Shown: one piece after another, positions 39,430 to 40,725 of the stretch
How positions within the stretch are numbered: the stretch's first letter is position 1
Layout: every line of letters begins with the position of its first letter
Origin: a virus
Taxonomy: Duplodnaviria; Caudoviricetes
Direction: 5' to 3' (one strand)
DNA length: 64,000 nt
IMG/VR virus record: IMGVR_UViG_3300028242_000036
Coordinates: 8,222 to 72,221 of that record
Program-made: the position numbers and the translations under genes
The notes under the pieces: model-generated
What the model was told of the DNA's origin: nothing
Databases searched by the model: none
Seen by the model: the letters and a program-made list of their open reading frames with translations, nothing else

Positions 39430-39491
39430 AAGGCTCAATTTTGCATTACAGATTAGCAGTCTGTCCCAAAAGATTTTGCTGTACGAGCCTT
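39430..39491 (-). ncRNA. ACAGCAA-stem RNA copy 1; cargo is a Ser(GCU) anticodon stem-loop
   Basis: AAGGCTC-GTACAGCAAA...ACAGA-CTGCTAA-TCTGT...GAGCCTT. Confidence 0.75.
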
Positions 39492-39512
39492 AGAAATTAT
39501 TTTAAAAAATAC

Positions 39513-39581
39513 AAGTCGCAATTTTTGTATAAGTTTAAATTTCAAGTTTAATCTCATAGTATGATTTGCTGTATGCGACTT
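39513..39581 (-). ncRNA. ACAGCAA-stem RNA copy 2; cargo is a Ser(UGA) anticodon stem-loop
   Basis: AAGTCGCA-TACAGCAAA...TATGAG-A-TTAAA-CTTGAAA-TTTAA-A-CTTATA...TGCGACTT. Confidence 0.75.
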
Positions 39582-39605
39582 ATGTATATTAAAGAAAGGA
39601 GAGAC

Positions 39606-39667
39606 AAGACACATTGAAAAGAAAGCCACCATCGTCTATTAGTAAATTTATTTGCTGTATGTGTCTT
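39606..39667 (-). ncRNA. ACAGCAA-stem RNA copy 3; short cargo
   Basis: AAGACACA-TACAGCAAA...TGTGTCTT. Confidence 0.7.
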
Positions 39668-39692
39668 AAAAGGAGAATCAAAACGAAACCCT

Positions 39693-39766
39693 TGGAGCAA
39701 CATAAGGTACTTGAAACCTTATTTTCTGATTGGAAATCAAATGTGTTACCGTTACACCAATGTTGC
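39693..39766 (-). tRNA. tRNA-Gly(TCC), encoded CCA
   Basis: GCAACAT acceptor, TTTGA-TTTCCAA-TCAGA anticodon arm, AAGGT-TTCAAGT-ACCTT T arm. Confidence 0.88.
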
Positions 39767-39776
39767 ATATAATAAC

Positions 39777-39906
39777 AAGACTCTATCAATAAACAATAGT
39801 CGCTGTCTTACCCCTTGACTACTACCTCATTCGGCAGGTAGGAATCGAACCTACGAATGGCGACTTGGCTTCTGTTATTTGAAAAAAGAATTGCTGTTAG
39901 AGTCTT
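39777..39906 (-). ncRNA. ACAGCAA-stem RNA copy 4; cargo is a circularly permuted tRNA (YrlA-like)
   Basis: AAGACTCTA-ACAGCAA...GCCAA-GTCGC, T arm GTAGG-TTCGATT-CCTAC, closed acceptor CTGCC-GAATGA-GGTAG, D arm GTC-AAGGGGTAA-GAC, GCGAC...TAGAGTCTT. Confidence 0.8.
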
Positions 39907-39913
39907 ATTTATT

Positions 39914-39989
39914 TGGATGCAGGAGATGGGATTGAACCACCGACCTTCAGGTTATGAGCCTGACGAGCTACCACTGCTACCATCCTGCA
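39914..39989 (-). tRNA. tRNA-Met(CAT), initiator-like, encoded CCA
   Basis: TGCAGGA acceptor, AGCAGTGGTAGCTCG D arm, TCAGG-CTCATAA-CCTGA. Confidence 0.88.
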
Positions 39990-40149
39990 ATATATAATTA
40001 AAAAATTTTATAACATTAGGGTGTTATATACCCAACACTTCTCTTACAAGCTCTATCGGCAATTCCTGTCCGTAAGCAAGTGCAAGAATAATTAAACTTC
40101 TCTTTAACTTAGACATTTACATTCCTCCTTATTTTATTTTATTGATTAA

Positions 40150-40225
40150 TGGTGCAGATGGTGGGAGTTGAACCCGACTTAAGCACGATTAAAAGTCGTG
40201 TGCCTGACCGTTAGGCTACATCTGC
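40150..40225 (-). tRNA. tRNA-Lys(TTT), encoded CCA
   Basis: GCAGATG acceptor, CACGA-CTTTTAA-TCGTG, bulged T stem. Confidence 0.85.
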
Positions 40226-40228
40226 ATA

Positions 40229-40304
40229 TGGCGGTGACAGAAGGACTTGAACCTTCGACACAGTGGTTAACAGCCACTCGCTCTACCTACTGAGCTATGC
40301 CACC
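40229..40304 (-). tRNA. tRNA-Asn(GTT), encoded CCA
   Basis: GGTGGCA acceptor, AGTGG-CTGTTAA-CCACT, GAAGG-TTCAAGT-CCTTC. Confidence 0.92.
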
Positions 40305-40435
40305 ATAAAATGATAAGCGTAGCTGACATACTACCTTATCTTGCTTCTGTATTTTACAACTTGCAGTAGACCATTGTTGGGTTTTTACAAAAACGCCTTA
40401 TGTCAGATGTGTTTTCGGTGTTGTCCTTCACATTA

Positions 40436-40510
40436 TGGCAGGGGTAATAGGGTTTGAACCTATAATAATGGAGTCAAAGTCCATCGTGTTGCCAATTACA
40501 CCATACCCCT
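40436..40510 (-). tRNA. tRNA-Gln(TTG), encoded CCA
   Basis: AGGGGTA acceptor, ATGGA-CTTTGAC-TCCAT, ATAGG-TTCAAAC-CCTAT. Confidence 0.92.
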
Positions 40511-40582
40511 ATGTTTGGTGGTTATTAAGGTCAACCACCATAACCTTTTGAAAGAGGTTTATTATGACAAATCATCAACAAG

Positions 40583-40656
40583 TGGTGGAAAATGTCAGAA
40601 TTGAACTGCTCCCCACCCTCCCAAGGGGCGTGTGCTACCGTTACACCACATTCTCC
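40583..40656 (-). tRNA. tRNA-Pro(TGG), weak T stem, encoded CCA
   Basis: GGAGAAT acceptor, CGCCC-CTTGGGA-GGGTG, TTCAATT loop. Confidence 0.75.
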
Positions 40657-40662
40657 ATATTC

Positions 40663-40725
40663 AAGACACATTTCAGGTTTTATAGTTTAAAAGACTATTC
40701 CTAAATAATTTGCTGTATGTGTCTT
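40663..40725 (-). ncRNA. ACAGCAA-stem RNA copy 5; cargo is a Lys(UUU) anticodon stem-loop
   Basis: AAGACACA-TACAGCAAA...TTAGG-A-ATAGT-CTTTTAA-ACTAT-AAAA-CCTGA...TGTGTCTT. Confidence 0.78.

Follow-up and report, generated by a model that had tools for sequence, protein, structure and literature searches.

Anticodon-arm hairpins carried by handle RNAs beside the gene of a Ro60-fold protein in a phage tRNA array

Y RNAs bind the Ro60 ring through a closing stem that carries a conserved motif, and a variable module of the same RNA recruits other proteins (PMC4201824; PMC12135203). The variable module can resemble tRNA: in bacterial YrlA it imitates the portion of a tRNA made up of the T arm, the D arm and the acceptor (Chen et al. 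2014, PMC4201824). It has also been reported that phage tRNAs counter tRNA-cleaving defences, as T5 tRNAs do against AriB of the PARIS system (PMC12409363). Here we analyzed a 64,000-nt stretch of phage DNA (hereafter the window; positions 8,222 to 72,221 of the 72-kb IMG/VR record IMGVR_UViG_3300028242_000036, with an estimated completeness of about 46%) in which eight small RNA modules, termed handle RNAs, share an array with tRNA genes next to the gene of a DUF2828/vWA protein. Three of the modules present a hairpin that looks like a tRNA anticodon arm, and an earlier note on this DNA had proposed that these hairpins are stand-alone decoys for anticodon nucleases. The explanation we favour, with modest confidence, is that the three hairpins are tRNA anticodon-arm mimics carried as exchangeable cargo by handle RNAs in a Y-RNA-like, Ro60-like particle, where they probably act as baits. 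The contigs that hold the nearest protein relatives come from animal guts and were binned with Lachnospiraceae and other Clostridia.

Three anticodon arms and the handle RNAs that carry them

The hairpins, the handle RNAs, the tRNAs, the gene of the Ro60-fold protein and the promoters are all encoded on the minus strand. The hairpins read ACAGA-CUGCUAA-UCUGU (39448..39464), UUAAA-CUUGAAA-UUUAA (39535..39551) and AUAGU-CUUUUAA-ACUAU (40682..40698), and sequence and minimum free energy (MFE) folding place them at the apex of handle copies 1, 2 and 5, where they resemble the anticodon arms of Ser-GCU, Ser-UGA and Lys-UUU tRNAs, respectively. Each has the perfect 5-bp stem and CU-NNN-AA loop that the earlier note had described, and each has the features of a tRNA anticodon arm: a 5-bp stem and a 7-nt loop with a pyrimidine at position 32, U33 and a purine at position 37. 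In MFE folds of the whole modules these stems and loops form and are extended by more pairing, again as described (z-scores of -1.9, -4.2 and -3.9 for copies 1, 2 and 5). The Lys-like loop CUUUUAA is indeed the loop of the intact tRNA-Lys at 40150-40225, and no tRNA-Ser was called in the window by ARAGORN or Rfam. Neither ARAGORN nor the Rfam tRNA model (RF00005) gave a match at 39428-39494, 39512-39583 or 40661-40727, even at E-values up to 10; copies 1, 2 and 5 therefore lack a D arm, a T arm and an acceptor and cannot be decoding tRNAs, which bears out another statement of the note. Perfect 5-bp/CU-NNN-AA hairpins occur 12 times on the two strands of the window, against 5.8 expected, and seven of the 12 fall within the 1.7-kb array, four of them in real tRNAs and three in the mimics.

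The description of the hairpins as stand-alone did not hold, as each sits inside a conserved module made of a closing stem and the motif ACAGCAA. The module is about 65 nt long and is built as (U)AAG-N6, an unpaired ACAGCAA(A/U), about 11 nt, a 17-nt arm, about 10 nt, N6'-CUU and a final G. Modules bearing mimics have a closing stem of 9-10 bp, and their MFE folds form both this stem and the apical arm. ACAGCAA is conserved in all eight copies of the window; the closing stems differ between copies, with compensated changes (GGCUCG/CGAGCC, UCGCAU/AUGCGA, ACACAU/AUGUGU). Copy 1 (39428..39494, sequence and MFE fold) shows the full layout, with a 10-bp closing stem, ACAGCAA, the cargo and a 3' CUUGG; copy 2 (39512..39583, sequence and fold) also has a weak full-length match to the Rfam family RF01414, and copy 5 (40661..40727) is supported by sequence and fold.

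The remaining copies carry other cargos. Copy 3 (39604..39669; sequence, fold and RF01414 search) has a cargo without an anticodon arm. In copies 4 (39776..39905) and 6 (40856..41000; also supported by its fold) the body is a circularly permuted tRNA, with a T arm, an acceptor closed by a loop and a D arm, and both are matched by the Rfam YrlA model (27.7 bits, E 0.002, and 42.7 bits, E 1e-7, respectively). Copy 7 (41129..41286) has a long cargo and reads AAGGCUC ... ACAGCAA ... GAGCCUUG, with an ambiguous 3' partner, and copy 8 (41294..41369) was identified by sequence and a stem search. A promoter or terminator role for these repeats was dropped because no U tracts follow them and their stems enclose 40-125 nt.

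The DUF2828/vWA protein and its transcription unit

The gene at 37831..39372 (minus strand) encodes a protein of 513 aa with the Pfam domains DUF2828 and DUF7788 (vWA); it belongs to phrog_850, a family that PHROGs names "RNA-binding protein". An AlphaFold (AF2) model built from 47 homologues had a mean local confidence (pLDDT) of 88 and a predicted template modelling score (pTM) of 0.87. The 12 best PDB matches of this model were all Ro60 structures, including those of Thermus phage phiLo, Xenopus and human and Deinococcus Rsr, and the alignments spanned the full length (520-580 columns, E 5e-9 to 1e-5, TM about 0.4-0.6). Furthermore, the model contains the HEAT-repeat ring and C-terminal vWA domain that characterize Ro60/TROVE proteins, and the MIDAS motif DxSGS of the vWA domain is invariant in the 47 homologues. 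As modelled, the DUF2828 protein has the Ro60 fold.

The array and this gene appear to be read as one unit. Three tandem sigma-70 promoters that match the consensus at 12 of 12 positions (TTGACA-17-TATAAT) lie upstream of the array at 41753..42042 (minus strand); they belong to near-identical repeated units spaced 100-160 nt apart, each reading into the RNA array. They are followed by the eight handle RNAs and seven tRNA genes and, directly downstream, by the DUF2828/vWA gene, with no minus-strand terminator found between promoters and gene. The tRNA genes (Gly, Met, Lys, Asn, Gln, Pro and Leu; 39693..41087, minus strand; ARAGORN and Rfam) are interleaved with the handle RNAs, and copies 4, 5 and 6 lie only about 5-17 nt from the nearest tRNA end, so that tRNA processing could release these three copies.

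We noted several further elements in and around the array. Two tiny open reading frames (ORFs) on the minus strand, one of 28 aa with a hydrophobic product (40739-40825, between handle copies 6 and 5) and one of 30 aa (40024-40116, between tRNA-Lys and tRNA-Met), both have a strong Shine-Dalgarno sequence (GAAGGGAG and AAGGAGGA). At the head of the transcript, a tRNA-like sequence with a CCA end (41546-41623, minus strand) was not called by ARAGORN and scored 22.3 bits with the Rfam tRNA model, below the gathering score of 29. The 130-nt spacer between tRNA-Asn and tRNA-Gln (40305-40435, minus strand), which has no tRNA, handle or Rfam match, may encode another small RNA. Just downstream of the Ro60-like gene, the gene at 36537-37754 (minus strand) has a sub-threshold match to the tRNA_anti-codon OB-fold (PF01336, E 0.003); a single-strand-binding role is likelier for it because its neighbours are replication-like (AAA_24, DnaB-like). 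On the other side, 43134-45543 (minus strand) encodes an MrpR-like recombinase-fold protein (PF22822/PF22823) that overlaps a DndB-like gene. An RNA ligase of 489 aa is encoded at 31008-32477 (minus strand; phrog_968, E 2e-67, with weak matches to Pfam RNA_ligase and the PHA02142 OB-fold), that is, on the strand of the array and about 5 kb further along, which suggests that the phage also repairs broken RNA.

Handles and anticodon cargos across related loci

We compared the window with 170 related loci, consisting of a viral set of 90 loci with DUF2828 homologues 36-60% identical to the protein and a genome set of 80 further loci from genome assemblies. In the viral loci ACAGCAA occurs 260 times on the gene strand versus 40 times on the opposite strand; counting only the occurrences enclosed by a stem of 7 bp or more leaves 189 and 5. 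With an enclosing stem, the genome loci gave 99 occurrences on the gene strand and 18 on the other. The 179 distinct modules have the consensus W-A-G-R-C-R-C-N-N-ACAGCAA, and they are found up- or downstream of the gene, often interleaved with tRNAs. Taken together, these results demonstrate that the handle is a conserved RNA element that accompanies the gene of the Ro60-fold protein.

The cargo of short modules was surveyed by counting an explicit stem-and-loop pattern against dinucleotide-preserving shuffles; this count replaced a census of MFE-fold loops, which was too noisy for AU-rich RNAs. A perfect CU-NNN-AA arm was found in 18 of 112 distinct short modules from the viral loci and the window, as compared to 0.24 +/- 0.47 in shuffles, and in 9 of 54 from the genome set (shuffles 0.12), which makes 27 of 166 for both sets joined. 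When the stem was sought first and no loop motif was asked for, 27 of the 101 perfect 5-bp/7-nt cargo hairpins had CU...AA loops, against an expected 0.7% (binomial p ~1e-34). The next commonest cargo loops were the T loops UUCGAAU and UUCGAUU, 7-nt loops were about twice as frequent as loops of 5, 6, 8 or 9 nt, and the spacers around cargo arms clustered at about 10-12 nt. The anticodons displayed were UUU, the commonest (6 of 27), UGA, GCU, CGA, GCA, GUU, UCU, GUA, GAA, GGU, UAA, CAU and one AUA. Position 34 was U in 13, G in 10, C in three and A in one, although A makes up 38% of the cargo (p ~5e-5), a usage resembling that of 251 real tRNAs of the same loci. Position 36 was U or A in all 27, which is only weakly informative because 81% of real tRNA loops of the CU...AA type are likewise U or A there.

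Individual loops also recur in distant relatives. In one viral locus (L001), whose protein is 51% identical, modules after the gene carry both Ser-like loops of the window, CUGCUAA and CUUGAAA, and a third, near-strict arm with a 4-bp stem and the loop CUGAUAA (anticodon GAU). CUGCUAA recurs in two more loci (L067, L091) and CUUGAAA in another two (L099, L104), the stems being different each time and still paired, so that the same loops stand on compensated stems beside genes 51-60% identical. Homologous copies, in which the earlier note had asked for the CU-NNN-AA pattern, have kept it, with tRNA-like anticodons. Scaffolds about 75-80% identical to each other were found with different anticodons (UGA versus GUA; UUU versus UGA versus GUU); at that level of identity they are only suggestive of anticodon swapping between similar scaffolds. 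A search of IMG/VR for near-identical versions of copies 1 and 5, with any anticodon allowed so as to catch recent swaps, found none.

Three other explanations of the hairpins can be judged on these data. If they were debris, that is, non-functional tRNA-gene fragments left by recombination in tRNA arrays and flanked by handles by chance, then whole, permuted and partial tRNA bodies would be expected among the cargos, tRNA genes being the raw material, and such bodies are indeed present. The arms, however, are cleanly apical with no adjoining tRNA remnants, their spacers are of regular length, their loops persist on stems that differ by compensated substitutions between loci whose proteins are no more than 50-60% identical, and their enrichment over shuffles is about 100-fold; we regard this origin as highly improbable. 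Scarcely better placed is the possibility that the loops are U-turn kissing loops, which pair fast and guide the particle to complementary RNAs instead of serving as protein baits. Antisense RNAs generally feature YUNR U-turn loops, and the UGCU of the copy 1 loop could pair with AGCA of the handle. Loops other than that of copy 1 have no common complementary partner, however, and the loops keep the tRNA-specific C32, A37 and A38, the exact length of 7 nt and a wobble usage that mirrors real tRNAs; in addition, T arms and whole tRNA bodies occur as alternative cargos.

Equally little weight, in our judgement, falls on sponge RNAs that act on their own, with no protein partner, and draw anticodon nucleases or modification enzymes away from tRNAs. 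Such sponges would fit the canonical and conserved loops and have a parallel in the phage tRNAs known to counter tRNA-cleaving defences (PMC12409363), but every anticodon arm found sits in a handle, the handle tracks the Ro60-fold gene, and nothing evident would shield a free 17-nt hairpin from nucleases. The sponge proposed in the earlier note is thus upheld insofar as the arms are genuine, selected and non-decoding mimics. They are not free-standing, being cargo of handle RNAs whose genomic companion is a Ro60-fold protein, and if they do act as decoys, it would be as part of a ribonucleoprotein.

Cultured phages carry the same pairing of gene and handle. By tblastn the protein was found in 709 cultured phage records, which include Felix O1-like coliphages and phages of Listeria, Enterococcus, Staphylococcus, Campylobacter and mycobacteria, and handles lie beside the gene in Alf5 (Felix O1-like), Enterococcus vB_EfaM_A2, Listeria LP-064, Staphylococcus S-CoN_Ph5 and Bacillus Izhevsk. 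A blastn search of the array against cultured phages gave tRNA matches only. The tRNA cluster that follows the DUF2828 gene of Escherichia phage Alf5 (NC_031082.1, 7713-8545) contains at least three handle modules and a fourth with UCAGCAA in place of ACAGCAA; one module has a permuted tRNA body, one a 5-bp/7-nt hairpin with the loop CACGAAA (A at position 33), and two overlap a hypothetical coding sequence on the opposite strand (8321-8644 of the locus), possibly a mis-call. One clade of phages, about 190 kb in size and marine-looking (L006, L010, L069 and L073; about 7638-7750 or 5635-5735), has after the gene a single module in which the ACA of ACAGCAA is paired into a local hairpin (GGUUACA...UGUAACC) with a strong terminator after it; this is a variant handle architecture.

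In Listeria phage LP-064 three consecutive modules (4664-4927) stand immediately upstream of the DUF2828 gene, and an RtcB-like ligase, an RNA ligase, a phosphohydrolase and a 'tRNA amidotransferase' (7120-11521) are all encoded within 5 kb downstream. This neighbourhood, and the RNA ligase (phrog_968) on the strand of the array in the window, would suit a role in RNA repair or damage sensing, in which the modules are surrogate substrates cut by an active host tRNase and do not soak up the nuclease. Their cleavage would either act as a switch for the Ro60-like particle or guide the phage RNA ligase to anticodon loops that have been broken. We consider this role unlikely. In its favour, TROVE proteins have been described by Aravind's group as a platform for RNA repair (PMC7824862), and bacterial rsr-Y RNA-rtcBA operons reportedly respond to damaged tRNAs (PMC7790460). 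On the other hand, linkage to a ligase was not universal in the loci inspected, and an isolated arm cannot align the two halves of a broken tRNA.

A possible particle and its relation to known systems

The favoured explanation, cargo displayed on a Ro60-like particle, reads the three hairpins as baits because the handle follows the same logic as Ro60/Y RNA, with a stem, a motif and a variable module. The handle, with its covarying stem of 7-10 bp, unpaired ACAGCAA and 3' CU(U/A)G, would be the analogue of the Y-RNA stem and would most likely bind the DUF2828/vWA protein with the Ro60 fold, whose gene is the last of the transcription unit, once the handle RNAs have been released from their precursor. 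The cargo, pointing away from the handle, would present its C32-U33-NNN-A37-A38 loop to proteins that recognize anticodon loops, and the particle would likely titrate or tether such a protein. The leading candidate for this putative partner is a tRNase that an anti-phage system of the host directs at anticodons, with tRNA-modifying enzymes second.

Judged from sequence, decoying of anticodon nucleases is plausible. It would fit the phage setting and the varied anticodons, which include the frequent nuclease targets Lys-UUU, Asn-GUU and Thr (PMC12409363), as well as the RNA-repair context, with a same-strand ligase here and, next to the LP-064 gene, both RtcB and a ligase. By analogy, it also fits gp130 of coliphage Bas63, a protein described as Ro60-like that is encoded beside tRNA genes and counters the Ppl defence (PMC11482910); the tblastn search placed the DUF2828 protein in Felix O1-like coliphages.

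Several points weigh against this explanation. The phage genome contains no Pfam TROVE match, TROVE chains in the PDB were matched only weakly by phmmer and by a profile search (E 0.8-1.9), and no tie to Ro60 from sequence searches alone (Pfam TROVE, phmmer, PDB profile) is secure; these searches failed or were marginal, and the fold comparison was decisive for the link. A strict anticodon arm is present in only about 16% of distinct short modules and in none of the scanned cultured Listeria, Enterococcus, Staphylococcus and Bacillus phages, which makes the anticodon arm one cargo class among several. The AU-rich stems of the modules share 2-8 of 10 positions with arms of co-resident tRNAs, the exception being L105, where an identical arm is called a tRNA by ARAGORN; the modules are therefore not fresh copies of neighbouring tRNA genes. 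Many anticodon nucleases require more of the tRNA than its anticodon arm, and Ppl, the only defence that publications connect with a Ro60-like protein of a phage, is not known to be a tRNase.

A bolder form of the bait explanation, which we put forward tentatively and would not expect to hold in full, is a phage display library in which a Ro60-like ring and a universal handle present interchangeable tRNA parts, each of which would capture or neutralize a matched host tRNA-directed immune nuclease. These parts would comprise T arms, tRNA bodies in whole or permuted form and anticodon arms whose identity is chosen, and swaps of the anticodon within the arms race might retarget the bait; this too we hold to be possible at best.

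In the literature we found no paper on the handle RNAs, on the function of phage DUF2828 proteins or on Y-RNA-like RNAs that display anticodon arms; papers on DUF2828 were unrelated plant and tardigrade studies, and the word ACAGCAA appeared in primers only. One known RNA of similar build is the Dictyostelium Class I RNA (Kjellin et al. 2021, PMC7919456), which begins with AAG, ends with CUGU and is closed by a stem of 6 bp whose 5' strand is followed by an unpaired motif of 11 nt. The handle RNAs resemble this family (RF01414) in being about 60 nt long and in having a short covarying stem that joins the ends, an unpaired motif after the 5' strand, an AAG start, a CUGU-like end and a variable rest. 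The Class I motif presumably ends in ACAGCAA, with which its conserved positions agree. The four best RF01414 matches in the phage genome were handle copies 6, 3, 2 and 5, at 13.8-12.4 bits and E 0.5-1.1, far short of the gathering score of 41.5. In contrast to the modules described here, Class I RNAs have an RNA recognition motif (RRM) protein as partner, no anticodon cargo has been described for them, and their hosts are eukaryotic amoebae. The handle shared with these unexplained RNAs, found in social amoebae, hints that the pairing of RNA and protein may reach much further.

A second comparison is with phage RNAs that act against defences. tRNA cleavage is emerging as a major anti-phage strategy, to which phages are known to respond with replacement tRNAs and repair enzymes; T4 Pnkp and Rnl repair the damage done by PrrC. 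Like the counter-defence tRNAs, the modules are phage RNAs in a tRNA cluster with the loops of often-targeted tRNAs (Lys-UUU, Asn-GUU, Thr, Tyr, Ser). Counter-defence tRNAs, however, are complete, decode and replace cleaved host tRNAs, whereas the modules can be neither aminoacylated nor used in decoding. If the bait explanation is true, a ribonucleoprotein displaying bare anticodon arms would be a third phage answer to tRNA cleavage, and the presence of the protein in so many cultured phage records makes the idea directly testable in laboratory strains.

The closest likeness is to the Ro60 (Rsr)-Y RNA systems, including YrlA/YrlB and the phiLo Ro60 (PMC4201824, PMC12135203), where the gene of a HEAT and vWA ring protein also lies beside several small RNAs. 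As in Y RNAs, a stem joins the 5' and 3' ends, the conserved motif is unpaired and the effector module varies; at least one RNA per locus mimics tRNA (here copies 4 and 6), and the RNAs and the protein belong to one transcription unit. The protein differs in being a DUF2828/DUF7788 protein and not Pfam TROVE, and the array is large, with eight RNAs. The gathering score of the Rfam YrlA model (RF02553), 69 bits, was reached by no copy; copies 6 and 4 fell below it and copies 1, 2 and 5 were unmatched, the tRNA-like module of YrlA (T arm, D arm and acceptor) being present in copies 4 and 6 and absent from copies 1, 2 and 5. The motif is ACAGCAA and not GNCGAA(N)G, the putative Rsr-binding site of YrlA, and some effectors are bare anticodon arms, whereas YrlA has been modelled with T, D, acceptor and variable arms and without an anticodon arm (PMC4201824). 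If the bait explanation holds, the locus would give the first concrete clue to the role of the tRNA-like modules of Y RNAs, a question dating from 2014. Compared with Ro60 and YrlA, this locus adds another protein family of the same fold, the motif ACAGCAA and cargos that include the very part of the tRNA that YrlA lacks.

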